Assembly: GCA_041749075.1 (NCBI GenBank)
Contig: JBGTBY010000035.1
Coordinates: 350,268-414,267, forward strand
DNA length: 64,000 nt
Source of the DNA: Balneolales bacterium
GTDB taxonomy: Bacteria; Bacteroidota; Rhodothermia; Balneolales; HLUCCA01
Direction: 5' to 3'
The position numbers and the translations under genes were made by a program. The notes under the pieces were generated by a model. That model made no database searches and was not told the DNA's origin. It saw nothing but the letters and a program-made list of their open reading frames with translations. Below, piece after piece: positions 3,659-64,000 of this stretch (positions within the stretch are counted from its first letter, which is position 1; the number at the start of each line of letters is the position of its first letter).

Positions 3659-5344
3659 ATGCATTACGAGCTACGTTGTTTTGTCTGCGACGCGCTCAAC
3701 GACGAGCGCGAAACCTCCACCTACTGCACCACCTGCGGCAATGTGCTGACGGTAAAATATGTTGCCCCCATCACCGGAAATCATGTCCCGTTGAGCGAAA
3801 CGGTAGCCGATCCGTTGCGGACGCGTCCGACCGAGCTCAAACGCCTCAACACCCTTTCCGAGCGATATGATGTCGATATCTGGGCGAAACTGGAGTTCCA
3901 GAACCCATCCGGCTGCTTCAAAGACCGAGGAAGTTTTGTGGAAGTGCGCAAAGCATTGGAACTGAAGGCTGATGCGATTTGCTTGGCTTCCACCGGTAAC
4001 ATGGCGGCATCCGTGGCCATGTTCGCGGGATATTACAATCTGCCCTGCTTCGTGTTCGTGCCCGAAACCACATCCGAAGCGAAACTCGCGCAAGCCACGA
4101 TTTATGGCGCAAGCATCATGCGCATCAAAGGCGATTTTTCGGCTTGTGAGAATTTGTGCAAGGCCTTCGCCAAGTCCGGGAACTACTATCTGGCCGGAGA
4201 TTATGTCTTCCGTGAAGAGGGACAAAAATCCTTTTCCTTTGAAACGATCGAACAAGGCGGGATGGATTTCGATCATGTGATGATTCCTGTCGGATGCGGG
4301 ACGAACTACGCCGCCATCCATAAAGGATTTCAGGAAGCAAAGGCCGCAGGACTTATCACCCGCATCCCAAAACTCGATGCCGTTCAGCCGGAACATGCAT
4401 CCCCCGTTGTTGAAGGCATCTTCAAGCGCGAAAAAATCATCAAGAAGTCGGTCAGCACCATGGCGACGGCCGTGGCCGCTTCCGACCCGATCGACTTTTA
4501 TAAGGTTCTTAGTGGCATCGAGAAAACCGGTGGCGACGCGATGACTGTCACCGAAGCGGAAATCCTCGTCTCCCTTCGTGAAATGGCGCAAACCGAAGGA
4601 TATTATACCGAAGCCGCCTGCGCCCTGCCGCTTGCCTGCCTCAAAAATCATCCGGAGCGATACCGCGGAAAAAAAGTATTGCTCGTGCTAACAGGCACCG
4701 GACTCAAAGACGCTCATGTGGTGGCCAAACACGCGCTTCCGTCGCCGGCGCTGGATGCGGATCTCACCCAAGTACTGGATTTCATCGCGTCGGGCTACAT
4801 CACCATCCAAAAAGATTCGTTCGGGAAATCGCGCGACACCTTGATCGCGAATCTCAAGCTCGCGCCGCGCCAAGACAAAATCTTGCATGATTATCTGAAC
4901 CGCATCAACCGCAAAGGAAAAACACTGTCGTCGAACGAGCTCGAAGTGCTGCAATCGCTGGTGTTCAACGAAGTCGACAATCTGGATTATCCGGTGATTG
5001 TGGACGATTACGACGTGAACATGCGCAAGAATGGCTTGGTCCATGCTTTGGTCACCCTGAAAGTGAATGGCGTGGAAGTGAGGACCTCGAATCATGGGGT
5101 TGGTCCGGTGGACGCCGTGCTGGGCGCCATCAAGAAAGAAACCGATAAGCTGATGGTGGTCGAGGTAAAAGGACATCAGATCGACATCCTGTCCCCCGAC
5201 ACGAATTCCCTCGTTGTGGCCACACTAACACTTGGATATATGGATCAAACCATCACCGTAAAAGCCGCAAGTCCCGATGTGATCGAAGCCGCCGTGAATG
5301 CGTTCGTGAAGGGGGTGGCGATGCTGGGAAGCGTGAAAGCGTGA
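3659..5344 (+). CDS. threonine-synthase-like PLP enzyme with an N-terminal Zn-ribbon and a C-terminal LeuA-type allosteric domain
   Basis: CxxC...CxxC at the N-terminus. Short-form ThrC fold-type II PLP core (NPSGCFKDRGS, ASTGNMAAS, EEGQKSFSFE, PVGCGTNY). The last ~110 aa carry GVGPVDAVLGAI ... SPDVIEAAVNAFVKGV, the signature pattern of the LeuA/CimA C-terminal regulatory domain. Start taken at the internal Met at 3659. Confidence 0.75.
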   Translation: MHYELRCFVCDALNDERETSTYCTTCGNVLTVKYVAPITGNHVPLSETVADPLRTRPTELKRLNTLSERYDVDIWAKLEFQNPSGCFKDRGSFVEVRKALELKADAICLASTGNMAASVAMFAGYYNLPCFVFVPETTSEAKLAQATIYGASIMRIKGDFSACENLCKAFAKSGNYYLAGDYVFREEGQKSFSFETIEQGGMDFDHVMIPVGCGTNYAAIHKGFQEAKAAGLITRIPKLDAVQPEHASPVVEGIFKREKIIKKSVSTMATAVAASDPIDFYKVLSGIEKTGGDAMTVTEAEILVSLREMAQTEGYYTEAACALPLACLKNHPERYRGKKVLLVLTGTGLKDAHVVAKHALPSPALDADLTQVLDFIASGYITIQKDSFGKSRDTLIANLKLAPRQDKILHDYLNRINRKGKTLSSNELEVLQSLVFNEVDNLDYPVIVDDYDVNMRKNGLVHALVTLKVNGVEVRTSNHGVGPVDAVLGAIKKETDKLMVVEVKGHQIDILSPDTNSLVVATLTLGYMDQTITVKAASPDVIEAAVNAFVKGVAMLGSVKA

Positions 5345-5600
5345 AAGCGTAGGAATGTTAAAGCGTCAAAACGTTAAAATGTAAAAGCGGTACCTAAACA
5401 AGACTATGAAATTGAACCGAAAATCTACTATGGCCTCCTCTTCACGTTTTTACGCTTTAACGTTTTTACGTTTTCACAATCGTCTCATTTTTACGTTTTC
5501 ACGCTTTAACGCTTTCACCATGACGCTTTCACGAATCCTGGCACTTAGTCTATTCTTCACATTTTCACACTTTCACGTTTTTACGCTTTCACAATTATAT
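5331..5600. repeat. inverted arrays of 8-bp units (GTNAAAGC on the left, GYTTTNAC on the right) around an AT-rich core
   Basis: The left array, 5331-5390 (GCGTGAAA GCGTGAAA GCGTAGGAATGTTAAA GCGTCAAAA CGTTAAAATGTAAAA GCGG), starts inside the last codons and stop of the ThrC-like gene. The right side has about 14 units of GTTTTTAC/GCTTTAAC/GCTTTCAC/GTTTTCAC between 5444 and 5595 and is the reverse complement of the left units. Confidence 0.8.
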
Positions 5601-50556: not shown

Positions 50557-52280
50557 TGGCTGAAATTTTCATCGACAACCAACGCTTCGAGTTCACCGGC
50601 ACGGTAAAAGTGCTGCAATTCATCCTCGACAAAGGACTCGATCTTCCGCACTTCTGCTACCATCCAGCATTGTCCATTCCGGCGAACTGCCGCCAATGTT
50701 ATGTGGAAGCGGGCATGCCGGTGTTCAACAAAGAAACGAACGCCTACGATTTGGATGAGAACGGTCAGCGTGTGATCCGTTGGTTTCCAAAACTGATGAC
50801 GGCTTGTAACACCGATGCCTCCGATGGCATGGTCGTTAAAACTCATGTGACATCCGAGCTTGTCCGCCGCGGACAAAAAGACGTTCTCGAATTCATCCTC
50901 ATCAACCATCCGCTGGATTGTCCTATATGCGACCAAGCCGGCGAATGTCCGCTTCAGATCCAGACGTACAAATATGGTCCGGAAGGAAGTCGCTTCGAGC
51001 ACAAAAAAGTTCATAAGCCGAAACGCATCCAACTCGGACCTCGTGTGGTTCTGGATGCCGAGCGCTGCATCAACTGCACCCGTTGCGTGCGCTTCACCGA
51101 CGAAATCAGCAAATCGCACCAGTTGACGATCATCTCCCGTGGCGACAAGAATTACCCCGCTGTCGCACCCGGACGTGAATTCGACGACGCCTACTCTCTG
51201 AATACGGTCGATATTTGTCCGGTCGGCGCGCTAACATCCGCCGATTTCCGCTTCAAAGCCCGAGTTTGGGATATGGTGTCCACACCGTCGATCGACATCA
51301 CCAACGGAAAAGGCTGCAGCGTCGATATCTGGACACGCGACAACCTTGTGCTCCGCATCACCCCTCGCGAAAACAAGAATGTGAACGATGTCTGGATGCC
51401 GGATGCGGGTCGCACGGCGTACACCATCTACAACGAAAACCGGGTGAATAAGCCCCAATTGATGTTGGATGGCGCTCAGGTGCCGACATCATGGACGAAC
51501 GCGGTTCTCACCGTTCACGAAAAGATCGCTGAAACCCCATCCGATCAGATTCTTGTCATCGCCAGCGCATTTTCCTCATTGGAAGACAACTTCGCTTTGT
51601 CCAGCTTCTTCTCGAAGCTCGGCAAAGGCTCGGTCGGTTTCACACCACACATCGTTCCTGGTTTTGGGGATGGATTCCTCATCACCGATGACCAAGCGCC
51701 GAATACCTCTGGTGTTCGGATGTTGGATGTGGCTGAACACTCCGCCTCTTCCCTATCCGATGCGGCCAAGAACGCCAAACTCGTGATCATCCTGAATGAT
51801 GACCTGGTTGGACGTGGCGTATTAACTGCCGCTGACCTGAAAGGTGCTTTCGTCGTGGCTTTGTCCTCGAATCTTACTGCGACAACCGCCGCCGCGGATT
51901 TGGTGGTGCCAATCACGACGGCTGCTGAGCACGTGGGAACCTATGTGAATGTGGATGGTCGCGCGCAACGCACCCGCGCCGCCAAAGAAACGGCGCATCG
52001 CGGCCGCAATGTGAACATGGACATGTCGAAAGGCCGTCTGGATCATTTCGGAACGCATTTCGACAACTGGGTGAGCGACAAGAACCGCATCGACTGCGTT
52101 CCGGTTTGGGAATTTCTCACAAATGTGGCTACAGAAGCCGGAATCGGATTCTCTTATTCCGAATCGGGCGATGTCTTGCGCGATATGACCGCGACTCTCC
52201 CTACCCTATCTGAGCTCACTTACGAGCGAATGGATGCCGAAAACGGCATTTCCCTTATCACCGAATCGAATCATGCCTGA
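50556..52280 (+). CDS. nuoG: NADH-quinone oxidoreductase subunit G
   Basis: N-terminal 2Fe-2S (CYHPALSIPANCRQC), HPLDCPICDQAGEC, CINCTRCVRF and a molybdopterin-like remainder. Confidence 0.9.
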   Translation: MAEIFIDNQRFEFTGTVKVLQFILDKGLDLPHFCYHPALSIPANCRQCYVEAGMPVFNKETNAYDLDENGQRVIRWFPKLMTACNTDASDGMVVKTHVTSELVRRGQKDVLEFILINHPLDCPICDQAGECPLQIQTYKYGPEGSRFEHKKVHKPKRIQLGPRVVLDAERCINCTRCVRFTDEISKSHQLTIISRGDKNYPAVAPGREFDDAYSLNTVDICPVGALTSADFRFKARVWDMVSTPSIDITNGKGCSVDIWTRDNLVLRITPRENKNVNDVWMPDAGRTAYTIYNENRVNKPQLMLDGAQVPTSWTNAVLTVHEKIAETPSDQILVIASAFSSLEDNFALSSFFSKLGKGSVGFTPHIVPGFGDGFLITDDQAPNTSGVRMLDVAEHSASSLSDAAKNAKLVIILNDDLVGRGVLTAADLKGAFVVALSSNLTATTAAADLVVPITTAAEHVGTYVNVDGRAQRTRAAKETAHRGRNVNMDMSKGRLDHFGTHFDNWVSDKNRIDCVPVWEFLTNVATEAGIGFSYSESGDVLRDMTATLPTLSELTYERMDAENGISLITESNHA

Positions 52281-53283
52281 TTTCTTGACACCTCAAATCC
52301 TGCTGTCACTCGCTGTGATCGGTGCGGGAGCCTTTTTCTTGCTCAACTCTGCGGCCATCGCGGTTTATGCCGAGCGCCGGATCGCGGCCTTCATCCAGAA
52401 CCGCGTGGGACCGAACCGCGTGGGTCCTGCTGGATTGCTGCAACCGATCGCCGACGTACTCAAACTGATTCTGAAAGAAGACATCACGCCGAGTCAGGGC
52501 AACAAGACGATTCACGCGATCGCGCCGATGATTCCGGTGGCTACGGCCTTGATGACCGTCGCTGTCATTCCCTTTGGCGATGGATTAGTTGGTTCGAACT
52601 TGGATGCGGGCGTTCTTTACCTTCTGGCCATCACATCTTTAGGTGTGTACGGTGTGACCTTGGCGGGTTGGGCATCGAACTCGAAATACGCGCTACTCGG
52701 AGGCTTGCGTTCCGCGGCGCAGATGCTGTCGTACGAATTGCCGATGGGCATGGCTGTGGCAAGTTGTATCCTCTTCGCCGGCTCATTGAGCATGGTGGAT
52801 GTGGTCAATTCGCAGGATATGATCTGGAACATCTTCCGCAACCCGCTTGGATTCCTCATCTTTTTTGTGGCCGCACTGGCTGAAGCCAACCGCACACCGT
52901 TCGATTTGGTTGAAGCCGAGCAAGAACTCGTCGGCGGATTTCATACCGAATACAGCTCCATGAAATTCGGGATGTTCTTTTTGGCCGAATACATGCACGT
53001 GACGATCGGCTCGATGTTGGTCACAAGTTTCTTCCTAGGTGGCTACCACCTTCCATTCGCACCGCTCTGGTTGCCGGAATTGTCACCGTTATGGAAAGGT
53101 GTGTTGGATGTGCTTGTGTTCTTGGGCAAAACCTTGTTCATCGCATTCACCTACATCTGGATCCGTTGGACAATCCCACGCTTCAAATATGATCAACTGA
53201 TGCGTTTGGGCTGGAGCAAGTTGCTCCCGTTATCGATCATCAATTTCTTGGTGATCGCTTCCGTCCTCTACTTCTTTCGGTAG
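52273..53283 (+). CDS. nuoH: NADH-quinone oxidoreductase subunit H
   Basis: AERRIAAFIQNRVGPNRVGP, EAEQELVGGFHTEYS, multi-TM. Start at MPDFLTPQ, an 8-nt overlap with nuoG. Confidence 0.9.
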   Translation: MPDFLTPQILLSLAVIGAGAFFLLNSAAIAVYAERRIAAFIQNRVGPNRVGPAGLLQPIADVLKLILKEDITPSQGNKTIHAIAPMIPVATALMTVAVIPFGDGLVGSNLDAGVLYLLAITSLGVYGVTLAGWASNSKYALLGGLRSAAQMLSYELPMGMAVASCILFAGSLSMVDVVNSQDMIWNIFRNPLGFLIFFVAALAEANRTPFDLVEAEQELVGGFHTEYSSMKFGMFFLAEYMHVTIGSMLVTSFFLGGYHLPFAPLWLPELSPLWKGVLDVLVFLGKTLFIAFTYIWIRWTIPRFKYDQLMRLGWSKLLPLSIINFLVIASVLYFFR

Positions 53284-53423
53284 GATTCTTTTCCAATCTA
53301 GGTACTTGTACCTAGGGATTTGAGCAGTCTTGCCTATAGAATTCACATGTGCATTGCCTAAAATGTGTGGTAGTCAGTTTAACTACTGAGACACCATTCA
53401 TCAGTTTTGCAAGGAGAAATCAC

Positions 53424-55520
53424 ATGTATCGTTATCTAACCACGCTTATCGTCGTTTTGACACTCGCCGCCTGCTCTAAGGATCCGGTGAGACCGTCTAT
53501 GGACTCGGATTCAAGCAATCCGAATCTGTCAACTAGTTCATCACCCTCCTCATCTTCGTCTTCGTCATCCACTACCTCATCCACTTCATCGTCTTCAAAC
53601 TCTGAAGTTGTATGGGTCGATGCAAGACTGGTCGGTAATCCTGCCGGTCCCAAACTGAGTACAACGGTCCTTGAGGCTGGAGTCGACTATCGAATTACTG
53701 TTGAAGGGAACTGGAGTGCTTGGCTTCCGAGCTGGTGGGAGTGTGTGTCGCCGTCCCCTACCGTTCACATATCACCCACCGTTCCTGATGGTATCTATGC
53801 AGGTATGGACCCCGAGTGGCGCTACGCTGACCCCGGGAATTGCAATCGGACTCTCTCGCAATATGCGGGAATTATGTTTAGTCTCGACGCAGGAGCAACT
53901 GCCTTTAATCCGACGCCGGTCGACGGAACTTACAATACCGATCACACTTACGAGTACATCGTAACCGGCACTGGAAATCGTATTGGATTCCACATCCCTG
54001 ACACCAACGAGGACAATCATGGCGTCATGAAAGTCACTATTGAAGAGATTGTGCCTCCTACAGTGAACGTGTTCACCAGTGATCCAGCTACTGTTCAAGC
54101 TTGGGGACCCATCCTCGAACTGCCGATCAATAGCGCATGGGTTTCCCAGTATTGCACCGTGAATCCAAACGTCGGTTTGGACGACCCACGGTGGGGATCG
54201 CCCCACGCCGCTTACGAGGTAGGACCAGCAGCATTTGAGACGTACACGTCATGGTCCAATTTCAATGCTCCGTGGATCAATGCATGGAACAGCTTGCAGG
54301 CATCTGCCGCACCTAGCGCCCAAAACGGCAACAACACGCAGAGCTGGTCGAAGTTCGAGTCCACAGTCTCGGGCGATGGAACATTTGTCGTCCAATTCTT
54401 GGCTGACAATTGCTCCTGGATCTATTTGGATGGCAACCTCATCGGGGTACAGGCAATCGACTGGAACACGAATCCTGCCGTGAACGGCCGGTACTCTTTG
54501 AACCTCTCCGGAACTCACACCTTGTCGTTCATCGTCTTCGACGGTGGTGGCCAGGCCGGTGGTAAGTTCCGCCTTGAGACCCTTTCGTCCTTTGTTGGTG
54601 GCGGCGGAAATGCCGGCGATGTCAACCCGCCTCTGCCAAGCGACAACACAGCACCTGTCATCACGCCAAATGTAACTGGAAATCTCAATGGCGACTGGTA
54701 CACCTCAGATGTGAACATCTCGTGGACCGTAACCGACGATGAATCGGATGTGACCAACACCACCGGATGCGATGCGACGACGGTAACCAGTGATACAAAC
54801 GGAGTGACCTACACCTGTGAAGCCACATCAACGGGTGGCACAGCCAGTGAGTCAGTTACTGTAAAGCGCGATGCTACTCCACCTGTTGTCACGGCCTCGG
54901 AATCTGGCACGATGGGGAACAACGGATGGTACACATCCAACGTCTCCGTCTCCTTCAATGTTAGCGAGCCTACTTCGCCATTGTCCTCAACCGGTTGTGA
55001 TGCGGTAACCGTCTCCACAGACACCAATGGTGTGACCTACACCTGCGAAGCATCGTCGGCGGGTGGCACAGCTAGCGCATCCGTGACGGTGAAACGTGAT
55101 GCCACGAAACCCATCATCGCCTTCTCCGGAAACGCAGGTTCGTACACCGTAGCTCAAAGCGTGAGCATCGGATGCTCAGCCACCGATAGCATGTCCGGCA
55201 TCGCGTCCAGCGACTGTCCTGGTGCGTCGGGCGATGCCTACACGTTTGGGGTCGGTACAACCACATTGAATGCGTCGGCGCTCGACTTGGCTGGAAACAG
55301 CAACTCCGCGGCCACCTCGTTCAACGTGACGGTGACATCGGGCAGCGTTTGTGAATTGGTAAAACGCTGGGTAAGTCAGCGTGGCGTGGCCAACTCACTC
55401 TGCCAGCAACTGAATAACGGAGCGTATGGTGCCTTCATCAAACATGCGCGCGCTCAGAGTGGGAAGCATGTGCCGGCTGACAAAGCGGCCATCCTTATCG
55501 CTTTGGTCGAACAGCTGTAA
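53424..55520 (+). CDS. cell-surface lipoprotein: Ser-rich linker, beta-sandwich region, three Ig-like repeats and a FIMAH-like C-terminal helix bundle
   Basis: AAGGAG lies 7 nt upstream of the ATG. Lipobox TLAAC. The Ser-rich tract is SSSPSSSSSSSSTTSSTSSSS. Repeats of about 85 aa contain NGDWYTSDVNISW / NNGWYTSNVSVSF ... GVTYTCEA.S.GGTAS.SVTVKRDAT.P. The tail NSLCQQLNNGAYGAFIKHARAQSGKHVPADKAAILIALVEQL has the FIMAH-type pattern. Confidence 0.7.
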   Translation: MYRYLTTLIVVLTLAACSKDPVRPSMDSDSSNPNLSTSSSPSSSSSSSSTTSSTSSSSNSEVVWVDARLVGNPAGPKLSTTVLEAGVDYRITVEGNWSAWLPSWWECVSPSPTVHISPTVPDGIYAGMDPEWRYADPGNCNRTLSQYAGIMFSLDAGATAFNPTPVDGTYNTDHTYEYIVTGTGNRIGFHIPDTNEDNHGVMKVTIEEIVPPTVNVFTSDPATVQAWGPILELPINSAWVSQYCTVNPNVGLDDPRWGSPHAAYEVGPAAFETYTSWSNFNAPWINAWNSLQASAAPSAQNGNNTQSWSKFESTVSGDGTFVVQFLADNCSWIYLDGNLIGVQAIDWNTNPAVNGRYSLNLSGTHTLSFIVFDGGGQAGGKFRLETLSSFVGGGGNAGDVNPPLPSDNTAPVITPNVTGNLNGDWYTSDVNISWTVTDDESDVTNTTGCDATTVTSDTNGVTYTCEATSTGGTASESVTVKRDATPPVVTASESGTMGNNGWYTSNVSVSFNVSEPTSPLSSTGCDAVTVSTDTNGVTYTCEASSAGGTASASVTVKRDATKPIIAFSGNAGSYTVAQSVSIGCSATDSMSGIASSDCPGASGDAYTFGVGTTTLNASALDLAGNSNSAATSFNVTVTSGSVCELVKRWVSQRGVANSLCQQLNNGAYGAFIKHARAQSGKHVPADKAAILIALVEQL

Positions 55521-55546
55521 GATTCAGCTTACATAGCTTGTAAAGA

Positions 55547-55577
55547 GCCCCTCGGTCTAGGATCGGGGGGCTTTTTT
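55547..55577 (+). terminator. intrinsic terminator after the Ig-repeat lipoprotein gene
   Basis: GC-rich hairpin GCCCCTCG...CGGGGGGC followed by TTTTTTATT. Confidence 0.7.
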
Positions 55578-55583
55578 ATTTAT

Positions 55584-55674
55584 GGTAGGATGGTAGGATG
55601 GTAGGATGGTAGGAATTTGAGGAACTTAAAGTATATTTTGGGAGACGTATAAAAGTACCATCCTACTATCCTAC
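55584..55674. repeat. composite element: (GGTAGGAT)x4, a 42-nt AT-rich core, then an inverted (ATCCTAC) array
   Basis: The left array at 55584-55615 has three perfect units and one variant. The core contains AGGAACTT and TATATT. The right array ACCATCCTACTATCCTAC (55657-55674) ends 5 nt before the ATG of paralog 1. Confidence 0.85.
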
Positions 55675-55679
55675 AGCAG

Positions 55680-57809
55680 ATGCCCCGCCACCTATTCCTG
55701 CTCCTCGCTCTATTTCTTTCCCATTGCAGCCAGCCGGTCGAGTTCAAGCGGGATAGTCCGACGGATCCTCAATCCGATACCTATTCTCCGGATAAGCCAA
55801 GAAATCTTGCATTGTCGTTCAACACGGCCAAGCTGAATCGCTTGGCTTGGCAAATCAGTGAACTATCGTTCGACAGCATACTCATCGAGCGCAAGACAAC
55901 CCTTGATGATGACTTCGTGCGCATCGCATCCATCGCGAAGAACGTTACGCAATTCGTGGATACGACGGGCTTCATGACCTCTCCGATGTCCTATCGTGTG
56001 GCGAGCGTATATCGGCGCGACGGAAAGGAATTCATCACCTACAGTGATAGCGTGGATGTTGAGTTTGGTGCCATCGGTAAACCGAATGTAACCTACAACA
56101 CGGCGAATTATCAGATCACAACGATTGTAGCAAGCGCATGGAAATCCAATTTTAAGGCTGAATACTGGGTCAAATCCCATCCCGATTCGAGTTTTCGACT
56201 TCTATCGGTTCAACCCGGCAGTGCAAGTGTGTACACGCAGACAGTACCCTTCAAGCAAGATGTCCTTCACATGGATGTCGCGGTCGTCTATGTGTTGGGC
56301 GATGACACGTACCGAATGGTAATCGACAGCACCGTTCGTACCGTTGCTGTTCACACACCCGCATCTGTGTCCATCGACCCGATGACCGAAGCCTCTGGTC
56401 GATTGAATTGGACCAATCCGTTCGATTTTCATGAAGAGATCTTGGTTCGAATCAATGATACGGAATGGGTGCTACCGAAATCCGCCACATCGCTCACCTT
56501 GCCACGATATTTCAGAAGCGGAATAGTGTACTCGGTATCGGTTCGATATCGCCGAGGGGCTGAGTTCGGAGCTGAAACCTTTTTCTCGAAAGGATTCACC
56601 ATCCAACCGCCGACTTTGACATATGACGGTCCCACTTATCCGAATGTCACCTTTCGAACAGTGAGCACGACGGCAGCGAACTCATCCTATGTACTCGGTG
56701 AATATGTTGTCTTGGAAGCGAGCCGAGACATGGGACCGTTTATCCCTCTCGACTCGGTTAAGATCACATCCACAAGTCATTCGTTCGATGTGGCGGGGAT
56801 GCTGGATTCATTGTCTACCTACTGTTTCCGTGCTCGGACTTTGACATCTGCTCCATCAGCCGTTATTTCGATTCGAAATAAACTGATGTATGGAACCCGA
56901 TCTGAGTCGCTGGTTCCGATGTTTAACAGGGTGGTTCGTTTTTCCCCATATGATGATCGATATCAAGGTTATAACGCACAGGACCAGGCCGGCATATATG
57001 ACCTTTTGAGCGGTAATCAGTTGCTCACCGTTCCAGAACCGTCTGATGAAAATAATGGATTTACAAAAAATGGACATTTCATAGCTCGTATAGGCGTGAC
57101 AGGAACGTCATCTGTTTATACGACTCTTCGCCGCTACGATGGCACAGGTTCCATACTTGGTGAATTCACAATACCAGCATACAGATATCATCTGGGACAC
57201 TATGATGATGTCATATATGTAAACACTATCAACTGGAACATTGAACGATATCACATGCCCACTGGCACAACATCAGTGCTTTCAACGGGCATGCCTCAAT
57301 ACGAAATTGCAAGTTATGCCAAGGATAACGAGCATTTGGTGGTTCAATCGGGTACACGAGTTGTCACATTCACTCATTCAGAGACTGGCAACTATGAGCT
57401 CAAATCCAATCGTATTCATGGCGAACTTTATAGAGAAGTACATGCCATTTACCTGTCAGACAATCACATCCAGTTTAAGGATGATCGCTCAAACATACAT
57501 GTCATTGAAATCGAGTCCGGTTCAGTGATGGCTTATCCTAAATACCCTTTAACTCATGCAACGCACCTATCTGGATTCGAATGGATCTTTTTTAACGATA
57601 CCTATGCGGTAATCAAAGATATCCGAATGACTGATTTTACTTTGGTATACTTCCCAGCGGTAACAGTCGAATATCGGGCTCAGGCTGCAAAAATTCGATT
57701 TAGCGATGGTAACATGGATATGTTCATCTTTAGATACTCCCGTCAACAAGAAACACATTCACACCGTCTCCTGTGGCTGATCAGACGGAATTTCTGGGTA
57801 GCTGAGTAG
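55680..57809 (+). CDS. tandem-paralog lipoprotein 1 (FN3-like repeats plus an uncharacterised C-terminal module)
   Basis: Leader MPRHLFLLLALFLSHC, then SQPVEFKRDSPTDPQSD. FN3-like segments (P.NL...N.LAW...FDSILIERK...YRVASVY). About 300 aa of beta-rich C-terminal module ending in FWVAE. Confidence 0.75.
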   Translation: MPRHLFLLLALFLSHCSQPVEFKRDSPTDPQSDTYSPDKPRNLALSFNTAKLNRLAWQISELSFDSILIERKTTLDDDFVRIASIAKNVTQFVDTTGFMTSPMSYRVASVYRRDGKEFITYSDSVDVEFGAIGKPNVTYNTANYQITTIVASAWKSNFKAEYWVKSHPDSSFRLLSVQPGSASVYTQTVPFKQDVLHMDVAVVYVLGDDTYRMVIDSTVRTVAVHTPASVSIDPMTEASGRLNWTNPFDFHEEILVRINDTEWVLPKSATSLTLPRYFRSGIVYSVSVRYRRGAEFGAETFFSKGFTIQPPTLTYDGPTYPNVTFRTVSTTAANSSYVLGEYVVLEASRDMGPFIPLDSVKITSTSHSFDVAGMLDSLSTYCFRARTLTSAPSAVISIRNKLMYGTRSESLVPMFNRVVRFSPYDDRYQGYNAQDQAGIYDLLSGNQLLTVPEPSDENNGFTKNGHFIARIGVTGTSSVYTTLRRYDGTGSILGEFTIPAYRYHLGHYDDVIYVNTINWNIERYHMPTGTTSVLSTGMPQYEIASYAKDNEHLVVQSGTRVVTFTHSETGNYELKSNRIHGELYREVHAIYLSDNHIQFKDDRSNIHVIEIESGSVMAYPKYPLTHATHLSGFEWIFFNDTYAVIKDIRMTDFTLVYFPAVTVEYRAQAAKIRFSDGNMDMFIFRYSRQQETHSHRLLWLIRRNFWVAE

Positions 57810-57810
57810 T

Positions 57811-59916
57811 ATGATGCCCCGCCACCTATTCCTGCTCCTCGCACTACTTCTTACCCAATGCAGCCAGCCCGTCGAGTTCAAGCGGGATAGTCCGACGGAT
57901 CCTCAATCCGACAAGTATGCTCCTTCAAAGCCACGCAATTTCGTTTTATCGTTCGATACCAACAAGAGGAACAGGCTTGCTTGGCGGGTGAACGAGTTCA
58001 CGTTCGACAGCATTCTCATCGAGCGGAAAACCACCCGTGAGAATGAGTTCATCCGGTTGGCCACCATCCCGAAGAATCTTGCTTCGTATGTGGACACGTC
58101 CGGTTTCATGACCTATCCCATGTCGTATCGTGTAGGAAGTCTGTACCGTCGTGATGGGAAGGATTTCATCACGTACAGCGATACGCTCAGTGTCGATTTC
58201 GGGACCATCGGAAAACCGGAGGTGTTTTACCACCTGACCAATTTCGCGCTGACATCACGAGTCTTCAGCACGTGGAAAGCGAATTTCAAGACGGAGTACT
58301 GGGTCAAATCCCATCCCGATTCGAGTTTTCGTCGCATATCCATTCAAAACGGAACCACAGGTTTCTATTCGCAGAGCATCCCTTTCCGTCAGGGTTTATA
58401 TGGCATAGACGTAGCGGTGGTGTATTTGATGGGGAATGATGATTTCAGAGCGATCATCGACAGCACCGTAACCCCATTGACCATCGCCTATCCGCTTGCG
58501 TTGGGTGTGGATCCGATGAATGAGGCCTCCGGTCAAGTGAATTGGGTGAATCCTGTAGATTCGTACGACGACATTTTGGTTCGGATCAACAACGATGAAT
58601 GGGTGATGCCGCCATCCGCCACATCGCTCACCTTGCCACGCTATTTCAAAAGCGGGATTCCCTATGAGATTACGGTGCGATACCGTGTGGGTAGCACGCT
58701 TTTTTCGGGATCTACCATCATCAAAGAATACATCATCCCACCACCAACGCTCAGCTACGGATTGCCGGCCGAATCAACGATCCGATTAGAAGCGAACAGC
58801 ATCAGCGATTTGGGGGAATTCATCGTGTTGGAAGAGAGTCAGAACATGGGTCCGTTCACGACTGTTGATTCGGTCCTCATCGAATCGTCAACACACTCGT
58901 TTGATGTGACCGATCTCGACACGTTGTCCACGTATCGGTTCCGCGCACGGACGTCGACCTCCCAACCCTCCGCGGTCATCGATGTGAGTCGTGGGGTGTC
59001 GTACGCATTGAGACCATGGGATAGTGGAACCCAATCAAACCGTTTGGCTGTTTTTTCGGATATCGACGACCGATACCTCGGCTACGATGCGAGCAATTCC
59101 ATGGGAATGTATGATTTGGCCACATCCGCGCGATTGTTCACCATCCCCACCATCCCGAACACGGCCCCATCCGGATTCAGCAACGATGGACACTTCATCG
59201 CCCGACTCAGTCAAACCAGCACCACCGCCACGTTCCGCAGATACGATGCGGCGGGAACACCACTTGGTGATTTCACGATTCCTGGGTATCGGTATCATAT
59301 CGGTCGGCATGAGGATGTGATTTATATCGATCCTTTAAAAAGCACCATCGAGCGGTACCATATGCCTACGGGCGCAACGACGGTCATCATGACTGGAATT
59401 CCCGCAGGTCAGATAGGCTACTTCGGCGCGGATGAGGCCCATCTCGTGGTCAAAATCGGCACGCGGTTCATTTTGTTTTCTTATTCCGAGACGGAAGGAT
59501 ATCAGCTCGAATCGAATCGGATATTGAATGAGCTGTCGGGCATCCCCTATTCATTGCAGCTGACGTCATCACATATCATCATGGCGATCCGGAGCCAAGT
59601 TATCCATTACATCGATATGGCAAGCGGATCGGTTCAGTCATTTGACATCAGCGCGCTTCCGATGTCGTTGAATCATATTTCCGAGTATGAATGGGTCTTC
59701 TTCAATGGAGATCTGACCGTGATCAAAGATATCCGGATGTCGACCGATATCCGGATACCGTTCACACCTACATCCGGCGTTTTCAGTGCGCAAATGTCCA
59801 AAGTCCGGCATCGGAACGGGTTTGTGGACATCTTCATGTACCGGCAGTCGAACAACTCGAGCAATCCGAACCAGATCATCTGGGTACGGAAGAAAGAGTA
59901 TTGGGTGGCTGAGTAG
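57811..59916 (+). CDS. tandem-paralog lipoprotein 2
   Basis: The ATGATG start lies 1 nt after the stop of paralog 1. Same architecture, with leader MMPRHLFLLLALLLTQC. Ends in YWVAE. Confidence 0.75.
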   Translation: MMPRHLFLLLALLLTQCSQPVEFKRDSPTDPQSDKYAPSKPRNFVLSFDTNKRNRLAWRVNEFTFDSILIERKTTRENEFIRLATIPKNLASYVDTSGFMTYPMSYRVGSLYRRDGKDFITYSDTLSVDFGTIGKPEVFYHLTNFALTSRVFSTWKANFKTEYWVKSHPDSSFRRISIQNGTTGFYSQSIPFRQGLYGIDVAVVYLMGNDDFRAIIDSTVTPLTIAYPLALGVDPMNEASGQVNWVNPVDSYDDILVRINNDEWVMPPSATSLTLPRYFKSGIPYEITVRYRVGSTLFSGSTIIKEYIIPPPTLSYGLPAESTIRLEANSISDLGEFIVLEESQNMGPFTTVDSVLIESSTHSFDVTDLDTLSTYRFRARTSTSQPSAVIDVSRGVSYALRPWDSGTQSNRLAVFSDIDDRYLGYDASNSMGMYDLATSARLFTIPTIPNTAPSGFSNDGHFIARLSQTSTTATFRRYDAAGTPLGDFTIPGYRYHIGRHEDVIYIDPLKSTIERYHMPTGATTVIMTGIPAGQIGYFGADEAHLVVKIGTRFILFSYSETEGYQLESNRILNELSGIPYSLQLTSSHIIMAIRSQVIHYIDMASGSVQSFDISALPMSLNHISEYEWVFFNGDLTVIKDIRMSTDIRIPFTPTSGVFSAQMSKVRHRNGFVDIFMYRQSNNSSNPNQIIWVRKKEYWVAE

Positions 59917-59917
59917 T

Positions 59918-62050
59918 ATGATGCCCCGCCTCCTCCTTCCAATTCTGATCTTATTCGGCAGCTGCAGCCAGCCGGTCGAGTTCAAACGGGATAATCCGAC
60001 GGATCCTCAATCCAACACCTATTCGCCCGTCCAGCCCTCAAAACCGTTACTCTCGTTCGATAACGACAAGCGGAACAGGCTGGCTTGGCAGGTCAAAGAT
60101 GTCTCCTTCGACAGTTTTCTCATCGAACGAAAGACCACTCTCGATACCGGATTTGTGAGGTTGGCCGCCGTTCCGAAAAACATCACCGCATATGTGGATA
60201 CCACCGGATTTCTCACCTATCCGATGTCGTATCGAGTGGCGAGTGTGCTCCATCGTGATGGAAAGGAATTCAAGACCTATAGCTTATCAACAGATGTCCA
60301 GTTTGGCACCATCGACAAGCCGCTCATTTCATACAATGCCACCACCCGAGAGATGGGTGTGATCTTCGCAAACACCTTCAAAATTCCATTTATCGTCGAT
60401 TATTGGGTGCGTCGACCGGGACAACAAACCTACGAAAAACTGGCATCCCTACCCGGTCCCGCGACCAACGTCTTGCGCACCTTCCCCGTCGATCATGATG
60501 TGTTTCGGTTGGATGTGGCCGTTGTGTACTCATTCACTTCGAACACCCATCGAAGTCTGGTCGATAGCGTTCCGTTTGTGATGCCCCTGCATTTTCCGCG
60601 AAACGTGAATGTGACTCCGATGACTGAGGCACGTGGACGAATCGTGTGGACAAATCCATTCACTTTTCATGACGATATCATTCTGAGAGTGAACGATGAT
60701 GAATGGATCCTGCCCGACACTACGACGTCCTTGGATCTGACGCGGTATTTCAGAGCATCGATCCCTTATTCCATACGGGTGCAATACCGACATAACGGAG
60801 ATTTCAGCCAACAAACGGCGATCAGCAAAACGATGCAGATCACCGCCCCATCCATTTCCTATCTAGGCCCAGCTAATCCCGATCCCGTCATTCAAGTTTC
60901 AAGTTCCAACAGTGGTACCAGTGTTTTTAATTTTGGAGAATATTATGTGCTCGAAATGAGCCGCGATTTGGCGCCTTATATCCCTATTGATTCAGTGAAA
61001 GTAACGGCCACATCGCATCTGTTCACCGTCACCGGACTCGATACCACCTCCTCTTACATGTTCCGAGCTCGGTCGCTCACTTCCGGTCCATCTACCGCGA
61101 TTCGACTCCGATATCGATTATCCGCGAAAAATCAGACCTGGGGTGGGATTTCGAATGCGCTCAACATCCGGCACTTTTCTCCATATGATGATCTCTATAT
61201 GATGGATGGAACGAGCACGACGACGGGCATTTACAATTTTGATACCAGACAGAAAGTGTTTGATGTACCGACTCAAGGAACAGGAAAACCCAACGGTTTC
61301 ACAAACAAAGGTGGGTATGTCGCGCACATCCTTGAGGAATCTGGTCAAACCACCCTTCGGCATTACTCATCGGACGGATCCCATTCAGACGATTTCGTAA
61401 TACCAAGTACGAGCTACATGATCGGACAATTTGATGATGTGCTTTATTTGAATCCATCGCGCCGAACGATGGAACGGGTTCATCTGCCCACACAACAAAC
61501 AACCGAAGTGCAAGCTGTACCGACAGCGCCTTCTGCCCAATTTGCCCAGTCAGGAAATGACATCGTCATGTACATACAGACCCAGTTGCGGATCTACCGT
61601 TTCTCGGAGTCAGTAGGTTATGTGTTTGTCAATTCGTTCAATCTACCGGTGCATGACAGCGATTTTAGCGAACTGAGGATAACAGACACGCATATCATCC
61701 TCAGAACCAGAAAAAACTCAACCAATTACTTCCGTTATATCAATCGCAACACGGGTGGGGTGGAGCAGTTTGACCGGGTCCTTTCCAGCACCTATTACTT
61801 CGTATTTCTCAACGACTATGATTGGATGATATACTATGGCCGGGATGCCTATTTCGTCGATCTGAAAAAGAATACTCAAACTCAATTGGTCTTCACTCCT
61901 GTAGTGAACGCTACTCTAGCACATCCCCTTCATTGGGTACGATCTAGGGATGGGGAACACGATATCTATCTGTTACGAACAGTGGGTTTCAGCAATTCAA
62001 ACCCGCAATTGCTCTGGCTGACCAGGCAAAAGCTTTGGGTACAAGAATAG
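59918..62050 (+). CDS. tandem-paralog lipoprotein 3
   Basis: The ATGATG start lies 1 nt after the stop of paralog 2. The tracked ORF extends 44 codons upstream into paralog 2, which I treat as spurious. Leader MMPRLLLPILILFGSC. Ends in LWVQE. Confidence 0.75.
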   Translation: MMPRLLLPILILFGSCSQPVEFKRDNPTDPQSNTYSPVQPSKPLLSFDNDKRNRLAWQVKDVSFDSFLIERKTTLDTGFVRLAAVPKNITAYVDTTGFLTYPMSYRVASVLHRDGKEFKTYSLSTDVQFGTIDKPLISYNATTREMGVIFANTFKIPFIVDYWVRRPGQQTYEKLASLPGPATNVLRTFPVDHDVFRLDVAVVYSFTSNTHRSLVDSVPFVMPLHFPRNVNVTPMTEARGRIVWTNPFTFHDDIILRVNDDEWILPDTTTSLDLTRYFRASIPYSIRVQYRHNGDFSQQTAISKTMQITAPSISYLGPANPDPVIQVSSSNSGTSVFNFGEYYVLEMSRDLAPYIPIDSVKVTATSHLFTVTGLDTTSSYMFRARSLTSGPSTAIRLRYRLSAKNQTWGGISNALNIRHFSPYDDLYMMDGTSTTTGIYNFDTRQKVFDVPTQGTGKPNGFTNKGGYVAHILEESGQTTLRHYSSDGSHSDDFVIPSTSYMIGQFDDVLYLNPSRRTMERVHLPTQQTTEVQAVPTAPSAQFAQSGNDIVMYIQTQLRIYRFSESVGYVFVNSFNLPVHDSDFSELRITDTHIILRTRKNSTNYFRYINRNTGGVEQFDRVLSSTYYFVFLNDYDWMIYYGRDAYFVDLKKNTQTQLVFTPVVNATLAHPLHWVRSRDGEHDIYLLRTVGFSNSNPQLLWLTRQKLWVQE

Positions 62051-62052
62051 AT

Positions 62053-63354
62053 ATGATGCACCTTCACCTCCTACTCCCGTTCCTTGCAATCCTGCTTTCC
62101 CAATGCAGCCAGCCGGTTGATTTCAAGCGAGATAACCCGTTGGACCCCCAATCCGATTCCTATTCGCCAGCCCAACCGAAAAACCTCCGAATGTCGTTCA
62201 GCACCGACAATCATATCGGGTTGGCTTGGCAAGTGGTGGATTCCGTGTTCGACAGCATCCTCATTGAGAAGAAAACCATTCTCGATACTGATTTTGTGCG
62301 ATTGGCCGCGGTCGCCAAGAATGTGACACACTATGTGGATACTGCCGGTATGGTGACAGATTCGGTATCGTACCGAGTGGCAAGTCTGTACCGGCGGGAC
62401 AGAAAGGAATTCAAAAGTTATTCAAACACAGTAAAAATCTTTCCAGATTTGGCGTGGAGCAACCATGAGTGGGACGGAATTCCAATGTCGCTCAACATTA
62501 GGCACTTCTCTGAATACGATGATCTGTATCTGATGGATGATGGAGTCTACGATTACAATACCCATCAGAAATTGTTTGATGTACCGCGTCTGGTGTCGGG
62601 CAGCCCCAACGGCTTCACAAACAAAGGTGGTTTAGTAGCCCAGATCGGTGCACCGAATACCACCCTTCGGCACTATACATCGGATGGCAACCATTCCGGC
62701 GATATCATCATACCTGCAACCAGCCACATCATTGGACAGGTTGATGATGTTCTGTATTTCAATCCAACGCGGCGCACACTCGAACGGATTCATCTGCCTA
62801 CAAAAACAACAACCGTTATCGAAGCTGGACTCCCAAATGTTACTTCAGCAAGTTTCGCAATTTTTGAAAACAACATCGCCATGAAGATTCAAAATCAAAT
62901 GCACATCTACCGTTTCTCGGAAACAGAGGGATATGCATTACTGAATTCATTCGCCATCCCGTCACACATTAGTGAACAAAGAGAAATGAGGATGACGGAT
63001 ACCCACGTCATCATCCGATTAAGAAATGGTCTTTGGAATTACTTTTGGTACATCGATCGGGAATCCGGCTCCCTTGAATCGTTGAGTCAGCATTGGACCA
63101 CAATCTCTCAATATGCCTATCTCGACGGGTATGAATGGTTGGTTTACTTTGGTCGGGATGCTTATTTCGTAGATCTCAATAAATCCACCCAATTTCGAGT
63201 GGTTTTCTATCCGGAATCCACTGCGTTTAGCGCACTAAACCTGCATCGAGTGCGCTTTCATAGTGACCAACCGGAAATACTCATTTTGAGATCATCTAGT
63301 ACAAGTTCTCAGCTTGTCAAACTGACGAAGCAGTATGTGTGGGTAACGGAGTAG
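62053..63354 (+). CDS. tandem-paralog lipoprotein 4 (short form lacking the central FN3-like repeats)
   Basis: The ATGATG start lies 2 nt after the stop of paralog 3. Leader MMHLHLLLPFLAILLSQC. One FN3-like domain is joined directly to the C-terminal module, which is most similar to that of paralog 3. Ends in VWVTE. Confidence 0.75.
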   Translation: MMHLHLLLPFLAILLSQCSQPVDFKRDNPLDPQSDSYSPAQPKNLRMSFSTDNHIGLAWQVVDSVFDSILIEKKTILDTDFVRLAAVAKNVTHYVDTAGMVTDSVSYRVASLYRRDRKEFKSYSNTVKIFPDLAWSNHEWDGIPMSLNIRHFSEYDDLYLMDDGVYDYNTHQKLFDVPRLVSGSPNGFTNKGGLVAQIGAPNTTLRHYTSDGNHSGDIIIPATSHIIGQVDDVLYFNPTRRTLERIHLPTKTTTVIEAGLPNVTSASFAIFENNIAMKIQNQMHIYRFSETEGYALLNSFAIPSHISEQREMRMTDTHVIIRLRNGLWNYFWYIDRESGSLESLSQHWTTISQYAYLDGYEWLVYFGRDAYFVDLNKSTQFRVVFYPESTAFSALNLHRVRFHSDQPEILILRSSSTSSQLVKLTKQYVWVTE

Positions 63355-63458
63355 GTAGGCTGGTAGGATGGTAGGATGGTAGGAACTTGCGACACTCGAT
63401 TTATATTCCCAACTTCGCGCAAGCAGCATCATACCATCTTACTATCCTACCATCCTAC
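63354..63458. repeat. composite element, second copy: (GGTAGGMT)x4, an AT-rich core, then an inverted (ATCYTAC) array
   Basis: The left array at 63354-63385 begins within the TAG stop of paralog 4. The core again contains AGGAACTT (63381-63388) and TATATT. The right array TACCATCTTACTATCCTACCATCCTAC (63432-63458) ends exactly at the ATG at 63459. Confidence 0.85.
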
Positions 63459-64000
63459 ATGAATCTTCTCCTATCTCTATTCCTGCTTATAAGTCCAGCC
63501 GCATCCGACACGACTGCCACGGCCGATTCTTCCAAAACCGTCAAAGCCACGAAAGATCTGCCGCTTGAGCCGGGTCGCACCGTTGAATTCACTGCCACGG
63601 AAGGAACATGGATGTCGATCGACATCAGCCCTGATGGCAAAACCGTCGTGTTTGATCTGATGGGGGATTTGTACACGGTTCCTTTCACAGGCGGAACCGC
63701 GACCCGCATCACCGAAGGATTGGCGATGGATACCCATCCGCGCTACAGTCCGGATGGAAAACGCATCCTGTTCACATCCGACCGCAGCGGCAATGAAAAC
63801 CTGTGGATCAAGGATCTGGATAGTGATGAGTACACGCAGCTCACAAAGAGCACGAATGAGAATTTCCCATCGGCGGAATGGACACCCGATGGCGAGTATG
63901 TGATCGGCGCGAAAGGCCGTCGCATCCCTAAATTATGGCTCTACCACCGCACAGGTGGCGCTGGCGCACAGCTCACCAAAGGTGCCGATAGTTGGAAGAC
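63459..64000 (+). CDS. secreted TolB-like beta-propeller (PD40 repeat) protein, probably the N-terminal part of a propeller-amidohydrolase fusion (runs off the window end)
   Basis: Not in the ORF track because it is edge-truncated. Translation reads MNLLLSLFLLISPAAS...ISPDGKTVVFDLMGDLY...HPRYSPDGKRILFTSDRSGNENLW. These are PD40/WD40-like repeats of the kind seen at the N-terminus of large amidohydrolases. Confidence 0.6.
   Translation, partial: MNLLLSLFLLISPAASDTTATADSSKTVKATKDLPLEPGRTVEFTATEGTWMSIDISPDGKTVVFDLMGDLYTVPFTGGTATRITEGLAMDTHPRYSPDGKRILFTSDRSGNENLWIKDLDSDEYTQLTKSTNENFPSAEWTPDGEYVIGAKGRRIPKLWLYHRTGGAGAQLTKGADSWK

Follow-up and report, generated by a model that had tools for sequence, protein, structure and literature searches.

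Tandem-unit hairpin elements at a variable lipoprotein locus of a Balneolales bacterium, probable residents of a genome-wide repeat class

Organization of the nuoH-PD40 locus

The stretch of DNA analysed here (the window, 64,000 nucleotides, G000:C35:350268-414267) belongs to the genome of a Balneolales bacterium (G000; 3.32 Mb, 51% GC, 38 contigs), and our subject is a pair of composite repeat elements, B (55584-55674) and C (63354-63458), that stand at the two ends of a run of four back-to-back paralogous lipoprotein genes on the forward strand (55680-63354). Coordinates without a contig label are those of the window. The last conserved gene 5′ of this variable gap is nuoH (52234-53283, forward strand; Pfam NADHdh, E 4e-119), and a comparison of the stop context across congeners showed that its stop codon lies within CGGTAGGAT, i.e. 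inside one octamer unit. Downstream on the same strand is a lipoprotein gene of about 698 amino acids (53424-55520), the translation of which has a lipobox after the ATG at 53424; the longest open reading frame (ORF) starts at 53349 and encodes 723 amino acids, hence the name 723-aa gene used below. Its canonical intrinsic terminator (55542-55576, forward strand; a 16-pair stem and then a T run in the terminator scan) is found immediately 5′ of element B. The starts of the four paralogs, registered by homology, are 55680, about 57814, about 59918 and about 62059, and no element occurs between these genes. The conserved right flank of the gap is a PD40/Tricorn-amidohydrolase gene of 1124 amino acids (63459-64000 and continuing past the window, forward strand; Pfam PD40). 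Its ATG at 63459 is the conserved start among orthologues, and the encoded protein is 88-96% identical in the metagenome contigs, G003 and G001, which are congeners, against 55% in the next genus.

Both elements are built as (GGTAGGAT)n, a core with a TATATT box and an inverted (ATCCTACC)n. In B, the G-rich left arm (55584-55615) consists of three GGTAGGAT units and one GGTAGGAA, the 40-nt core (55616-55655, forward) carries a TTG (55617-55619) that is followed after 12 nt by TATATT (55632-55637), and the C-rich right arm (55656-55674; TACCATCCTACTATCCTAC) is separated from the ATG at 55680 by the 5 nt AGCAG. Element C begins on the G of the TAG stop codon of paralog 4 (63352-63354); its left arm (63354-63385) reads GGTAGGCT, two GGTAGGAT and GGTAGGAA, its 43-nt core (63386-63428, forward) carries TTG (63387-63389), 12 nt, TATATT (63402-63407) and then CCCAACTTCGCG, and the last base of its 30-nt right arm (63429-63458; TCATACCATCTTACTATCCTACCATCCTAC) directly precedes the ATG of the PD40 gene. 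The initial annotation of this DNA, made from the letters alone, was thus accurate in every detail of coordinates, arms, TTG-N12-TATATT spacing and abutment on stop codon and ATG.

Chance does not account for these structures. The 15-mer GGTAGGATGGTAGGA, with up to two mismatches, has nine matches in the window against 0.03 in shuffles, and the same arms were given by Tandem Repeats Finder (TRF) and by a repeat finder. Arm complementarity is 95% over 19 nt in B and 87% over 30 nt in C, and the predicted RNA folds reach -38.4 kcal/mol (z -6.95) and -50.7 kcal/mol (z -7.13), respectively, with none of 200 shuffles as good. The terminator scan detected no intrinsic terminator (GC-rich stem, short loop, T run) within B or C, and Rfam returned nothing above the gathering threshold, only generic miRNA-hairpin matches (19-32 bits, where the cut-offs are 59-107). 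Across 54 nt, B and C share 83% identity in their left halves.

Conserved cores and changing arms in congeners

The same synteny, with B-like and C-like elements, was found in four congeneric metagenome contigs and in G003. From nuoH to the PD40 gene, L071 and L195 each have B, one paralog and C; L069 has B, a paralog, a further element that we call B′, a paralog, a short paralog and C; and L196 together with L070, from the same sample, gives B′, paralog, B′, paralog, C and PD40. Against the order seen in G000 (nuoH, 723-aa gene, terminator, B, four paralogs, C, PD40), G003 has nuoH, the 723-aa gene, the terminator, one element and PD40, G001 has only an unrelated hairpin between nuoH and PD40, and in G002 nuoH is followed by GGTAGGAT GGTAGGAT AGTACGCTG, about 120 nt and a 73-nt remnant of the PD40 3′ end. 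The paralog copy number at the locus therefore ranges from 0 to 4 across congeners, the array being absent in G001, G002 and G003. The 723-aa gene occurs at the locus in G000 and G003 only and is absent there in L069, L071, L195, G001 and G002; its product has a single orthologue (91%, in G003) among the eight relatives searched, and a metagenome scan with it returned distant relatives only and no close populations.

In the protein database, the relatives of paralog 1 come from a few metagenome contigs and all lie between nuoH and the PD40 gene, and a scan of species-representative genomes with paralog 1 gave no relative. Since all relatives share this position and these flanks, and since G002 retains the PD40 remnant, the presence of the paralog family is ancestral and the empty states are deletions. 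Between genomes the paralogs are 37-61% identical, whereas PD40 is 90-96% identical (metagenome contigs and G003), which suggests very fast evolution or differential retention of the family.

The initial annotation had taken B and C for two copies of one element. Their cores, however, are barely alike (p ~0.015 in the core alignment), and each has orthologues of its own. The C core is kept in L069, L070 and L071, with alignment scores of 16-28 against about -8 +/- 3.6 for shuffles, and the B core matches that of the L069 B′ element (18 against -5.6 +/- 3.4) despite different arms. B and C are thus two distinct elements, each with its own orthologues at the same gene border in congeners. An exact 15-mer scan of the C core in genome contigs produced chance matches only, in unrelated phyla. 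In all C orthologues the box, as TATATT, AATATT or TAAATT, lies 17 nt after the last GTAGGA, and the right arm also ends at the ATG in L069, L070 and L071. B′ elements are found in L069 and L196 upstream of paralog genes that have no B upstream. We also observed that the inter-paralog junctions of G000 at 57795-57827 and 59902-59934 (GAGTAGTATGATGCCCCGCC; TGGGT.GCTGAGTAGTATGATGCCCCGCC) resemble the two ends of B′ minus the entire hairpin.

The arms are far less stable than the cores. The orthologues of B and C (L069, L070, L071, L195, G003) carry 3-7 units and other unit variants at a conserved position, so that the variation in unit number that the initial annotation proposed to look for does exist between congeners; the C left arm alone has four units in G000 and L069, seven in L070 and three in L071. 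Homologous cores are framed by GGTAGGAT/ATCCTACC arms in G000 and by GTACGCTG/CAGCGTAC-like arms in L069 and L196, a change of two substitutions per unit that is matched on the opposite arm. Both B and C of L195 have right arms of the CCAATTAC flavour, the complement of GTAATTGG, and in G002 variant units are mixed inside single arrays. The arms have remained paired while the sequence of their units was replaced in evolution. Of 12 elements at this locus, 11 have a better fold in the sense than in the antisense strand and one has a tie, the sense strand having more G-U pairs; the 12 sequences are related to one another. The proposal of a hairpin or cruciform is well served by the strong folds (z about -7) and by pairing kept through unit replacement; the regulatory effect proposed along with it is borne out only in part.

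Gene-scale indels ending at the arrays

Three gene-scale indels were identified at the locus, each with an endpoint in or beside an octamer array. Homology between G003 and G000 crosses the terminator, ends 28 nt into the B left arm and restarts 44 nt into the PD40 gene, and this junction is the product expected of an exchange between the two left arms, then remodelling. An origin of the G003 element by recombination between B and C fits only partly: it has the core and right arm of a C-type variant that L195 also carries, and an expanded GGTACGCT array as its left arm. The G002 deletion starts about 120 nt past the array downstream of nuoH. In G000, the 723-aa gene has a lone GGTAGGAT remnant at the nuoH stop on one side, not seen in G003, and the rest of the array, the remainder of the B left arm, on the other.

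Elsewhere, three of the eight G002 GGTAGGAT loci are where synteny with G000 breaks, and few other arrays lie in the 80-kb G003 synteny block. A 1.1-kb extra gene of G000 (G000:C28:7522-8646 against G003:C1:29108-29136) adjoins a GCATCCC/GCATCCA heptamer array common to both genomes. The earlier suggestion that the elements are recombination substrates stands insofar as gene-scale indels end in or beside arrays; it does not stand for the delimitation of a mobile cassette.

A genome-wide class of tandem-unit hairpins

TRF detected 544 period-7 and 219 period-8 arrays in G000, and the strong ones far exceed those at neighbouring periods. After merging, there were 718 arrays, and for 255 of these an inverted partner lies no more than 1.5 kb away. 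The result is a set of about 150 composite elements that span more than 20 unit families, here called dialects, some nested with one family inside another. The arms are mostly less than 100 nt apart, and a second peak of arm separation is found at 400-550 nt. Among 102 short composites, 49 are in co-directional, 24 in convergent and 19 in divergent gaps, and with composites in every gap type the class as such consists neither of promoters nor of terminators. By the initial annotation's own account, a ubiquitous REP-like terminator of fixed copy number would have counted against its reading; the architecture is ubiquitous beside many unrelated genes, but copy number does vary.

The short-composite cores are unique (14 weak pairs among 51 cores), and we rejected an identity as MITEs (miniature inverted-repeat transposable elements), in which sequence is conserved between the terminal inverted repeats. 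The arms obey a strong polarity rule, with the G-rich arm 5′ and the C-rich arm 3′ in 74 elements and the reverse in two, in every gene context; examples among these 76 skewed elements are C10:19385-19493 and C22:70982-71185. Of 122 arrays that adjoin stop codons, whether they stand alone or in pairs, 99 are G-rich in the sense direction.

The dialect of B and C, GGTAGGAT, forms arrays at about seven further places in G000, next to unrelated genes, and among 40 relatives its arrays are confined to the same genus. One solo array (G000:C10:2541-2575) and the C right arm of L069 (L069:13510-13541) share 31 nt of degenerate units (ATCCTACCATCATACTATCCTACCATCCGAC) that appear identical by eye and may reflect exchange between dispersed arrays. 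Within the window there is a second composite element at 5329-5593, (GAAAGCGT)n ... (ACGCTTTC)n, whose right-hand arrays extend into the 5′ end of an amidohydrolase gene, where they may encode a signal peptide (MTLSRILALSLFFTFSHFHVFTLSQLYAQ, ATG 5521). Retro-copying by a reverse transcriptase is unsupported, a single sub-threshold RVT_1 match (27.9 bits) being all that was found.

Small PF05635 genes inside the gene-carrying form

The class of composites with arms 400-550 nt apart mostly encloses a small four-helix-bundle gene. G000 has nine genes of the PF05635 family (S23p/Avd-like), all of them beside tandem-unit arrays and each in a different dialect (G000:C20:60401-60930, C33:5631-6194, C31:118549-119057, C5:30219-30876, C31:158292-158883, C10:116318-116820, C33:27611-28079, C31:69296-69822 and C23:241-670). 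Eight of the nine have inverted arms on both sides and the ninth is at a contig start, and the G-rich arm always comes first, whichever way the gene points. The nine dialects make up 64% of all arrays, against 12% for random units.

The cassette at C20:60401-60930, on a contig other than that of the window, has (GGTAGGAT)7 and (ATCCTACC)3 as its arms, so that B and C share their unit dialect with a resident PF05635 cassette. The orthologue of its protein in G002 (68%) has the same GGTAGGAT arms. More distant relatives (53-56%) have GGTACGCT/GGTAGGAT arms in G001, GGTACTAC arms in G005 and GGTAATT heptamer arms in G003 and in a second G002 copy (54-56% in these two). The dialect counts for GGTAGGAT are 28 in G000, 27 in G002, 4 in G001 and 1 in G003; the corresponding counts are 8, 54, 0 and 32 for GGTAATT, and 0, 15, 18 and 5 for GGTACGCT. 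The abundance of a dialect follows the presence of its cassette, a pattern that is suggestive only.

Comparison with known repeat systems

The closest counterpart is the GGGAATC heptamer family of Xanthomonas, with 70-75 close convergent inverted pairs per genome and its G-rich strand coding just after stops and non-coding just before starts (Rehm et al. 2015, PMC4692102). Tandem G-rich intergenic units, G-then-C polarity and the same strand rule at ORF ends are common to both systems, as are positions conserved between species with variable length and sequence (PMC4692102). The G000 elements have the convergent arms, the G-rich sense orientation of intergenic arrays abutting stops and the conserved position of the Xanthomonas type, with a unit that is here 8 nt and not 7; the GGGAATC dialect itself is also present in G000. 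The differences are that Xanthomonas has essentially one unit, with G-quadruplex potential, and G000 has more than 20 dialects including 8-mers without G runs; that the Xanthomonas arrays are in more stable places, whereas those of G000 coincide with indel ends; and that no PF05635 link is reported there (PMC4692102). The elements are thus a multi-dialect version of an already known kind of repeat, and it is the multi-dialect form that is new.

The gene-carrying form recalls the 23S rRNA intervening sequence of Coxiella burnetii, where an S23p (PF05635) ORF sits in a long terminal-inverted-repeat stem that is cut by RNase III, with 2-3 strain-variable tandem heptamers on the 5′ side (PMC4990558). 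The design of a small four-helix-bundle gene in a loop is shared by all nine G000 PF05635 genes. In contrast, B and C are gene-less (their 40-43-nt cores contain no ORF, and hence no PF05635 gene in the loop), they lie outside rRNA, a promoter-like core occupies their loop and their arms consist wholly of tandem units. They could at most be gene-less relatives of cassettes of this S23p/intervening-sequence type.

In Haemophilus influenzae, an (ATCTTTC)n hairpin in the 5′ untranslated region (UTR) of hmw1A is cleaved by RNase III and determines both the expression of the adhesin and the dynamics of the repeat (PMC12721329). As at our locus, a long hairpin that has a short-unit array as one of its arms lies just upstream of a gene for a surface protein. 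In hmw1A, RNase III processing together with repeat number sets expression (PMC12721329), in the way that the initial annotation had imagined for B and C. There, however, both arms are in the 5′-UTR, the first of them is the pyrimidine-rich one, the repeats number at least 11, and a single locus is concerned and not a genome-wide class.

Tandem heptamers of cyanobacteria, the STRR sequences, were reportedly described by Mazel in 1990. In Beggiatoaceae, cyanobacteria and some Bacteroidetes, there are TAACTGA repeats whose ends fall just before start codons (PMC4679880). These systems resemble ours in having several intergenic tandem-heptamer families that often stop only a few bases from a start codon (PMC4679880), but they have been described mainly as direct arrays, and the description does not include inverted pairing, compensated turnover of arms or a cognate gene. 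Repetitive extragenic palindromes (REPs), their mosaic assemblies (BIMEs) and REPIN-RAYT systems are likewise abundant extragenic, hairpin-forming palindromes at gene borders (PMC3116915, PMC3733652); they differ in being near-identical palindromes of 20-40 bp tied to a RAYT gene (PMC3116915, PMC3733652). The tandem-unit elements have only their arms in common with one another. G000 has one Y1 (RAYT-like) transposase gene (C12:71559-71897), with a cluster of four classical REP hairpins beside it (C12:71300-71900; CCGAGGGC-N4-GCCCTCGG, where N4 is TAAA or TTCA). Since this gene is flanked by its own REPs and not by tandem units, we rejected membership of the tandem-unit elements in the REP/REPIN-RAYT group.

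Elements B and C as probable resident members of the class

B and C are probably, though by no means surely, old resident and gene-less members of the genome-wide hairpin class, in its GGTA-octamer dialect, which frame promoter-like cores and mark places of gene gain and loss. The design of the class is one of tandem 7-8-nt unit arms, the G-rich array 5′ and its complement 3′, with a gene-carrying form that encloses a small PF05635 gene. The comparison shows that B and C have occupied the same two gene borders from a time before the diversification of the genus and that each has retained its own core. Their arms gain and lose units, and the unit sequence changes jointly on the two sides and in the two elements. 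As direct repeats, the left arms stand 7.8 kb apart, and this is probably the reason why indel ends coincide with arrays; in congeners, such indels left between 0 and 4 paralogs, introduced the 723-aa gene or eliminated the PD40 gene.

As for expression, the initial annotation had considered a core promoter, for which the right arm would be the leader. This is plausible because TATATT, followed by a G-poor stretch, is the most enriched hexamer upstream of G000 genes (about 10-fold) and because the box has the same position in orthologous elements. The core TATATT could then be the -10 element of the downstream gene. Transcripts starting from the core would have only the G-poor right arm, as an unstructured leader, and read-through transcripts from upstream would contain both arms and could form a 19-30-bp stem beside the start codon. 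Such a stem would shield the two transcription units from each other and would probably be a substrate of RNase III, whose action on comparable stems has precedents (PMC4990558, PMC12721329).

Several observations weigh against this scheme. The promoter scan found no sigma-70-type promoter in either core, no -35 partner of TAT[AC]TT emerged genome-wide, and the promoter assignment is based on one hexamer; for want of that partner, a TTG 12 nt upstream was dropped as a general rule. The TAT[AC]TT box is present in only 4 of 102 class cores, and a promoter in the loop is therefore special to this locus and was rejected as a rule for the class. Across the class there is no asymmetry between sense and antisense folds (25 against 24, p = 0.75), which argues against RNA-level selection for the class. 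The coincidence of arrays with indel ends is partly trivial because the elements occupy whole intergenic gaps, and the correlation between cassettes and dialects covers four genomes, two of them fragmented.

Alternative explanations

It is also possible, although we hold this more tentatively, that the GGTAGGAT arms of B and C are satellites maintained in trans by one PF05635 cassette, and that the genome contains about nine cognate pairs of protein and repeat. Each S23p/Avd-like protein would then recognise the 7-8-nt unit of its own arms, as DNA or RNA, and would drive or guide the process by which that unit spreads to dozens of gene borders and is homogenised there. Such pairs would write most of the intergenic structure, set the polarity rule and shape the sites of gene gain and loss. 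Our literature search found no published system of cognate PF05635 protein-repeat pairs, and no paper on such repeats in Balneolales or tying PF05635 to repeat dialects. The possible partnership of PF05635 proteins with the repeats is the more interesting question.

A purely neutral origin, in which the arrays would be a by-product of replication slippage and would expand at any site under weak selection, the inverted pairs would come from local fold-back copying, and PF05635 genes and expression would be unrelated to either, strikes us as unlikely. It would suit the occurrence of arrays in all types of intergenic gap, the unique cores, the labile unit number and the missing sense/antisense asymmetry, and an excess of heptamers has been ascribed to polymerase slippage (Mrazek 2007, as cited in PMC4679880 and PMC4692102). 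It leaves unaccounted for the recurrence of the same few dialects at dozens of loci, the 74:2 polarity in every context and the arm replacements compensated on both sides, as well as the presence of all nine PF05635 genes beside arrays of different dialects and the tracking of cassette presence by dialect abundance.

It is still less probable that B and C are dedicated contingency switches, whose unit number would tune or phase-vary expression of the paralogs and of the PD40 gene through a hairpin in the 5′-UTR. The two elements do lie directly upstream of genes for exported proteins and form a long hairpin, units number 3-7 among congeners, and a heptamer hairpin processed by RNase III has a precedent (PMC12721329). 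However, the perfect tracts of B and C count only 3-4 units, against the 11 or more needed in hmw, and the length variation is seen between genomes; high-frequency switching would be unlikely because of these short tracts. Moreover, the variable and perfect arm lies upstream of the putative -10 box and so outside the leader, the right arm is degenerate and conserved, and the same architecture is found beside unrelated genes and in convergent gaps.

That B and C are site-specific recombination sites bounding the paralog array as a mobilisable cassette, as the initial annotation had also envisaged, is very improbable: the array is missing from G001, G002 and G003, and G003 has one element where G000 has element, array and element, but the family has the same position and flanks throughout the genus, the absences are deletions (with the PD40 remnant in G002), paralog 1 has no relative in species-representative genomes and its protein-database relatives are only at this locus, the sole Y1 transposase has classical REPs of its own, and no recombinase gene was seen among the ORFs from nuoH to the PD40 gene. 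The constant nuoH-PD40 position in every genome with the family likewise excludes the array from integron-like or other mobile gene cassettes.

Implications

Elements of this kind should not be taken by annotators as gene-specific regulators or as the ends of cassettes. With the same conserved cores, different self-complementary arms and 0 to 4 surface-protein paralogs among genomes that share 93-96% identity in the flanking PD40 protein, the nuoH-PD40 locus is a compact natural experiment, in which it could be asked whether hairpins insulate transcription units, whether they are cut by RNase III and whether they promote deletions. PF05635 is among the commonest 'hypothetical' families in bacteria. 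If the reading given here is right, a limited number of repeat dialects, every one of them linked to a single tiny gene, would make up most of the non-coding DNA of this lineage, and PF05635, a family of unknown function, would gain a testable role.

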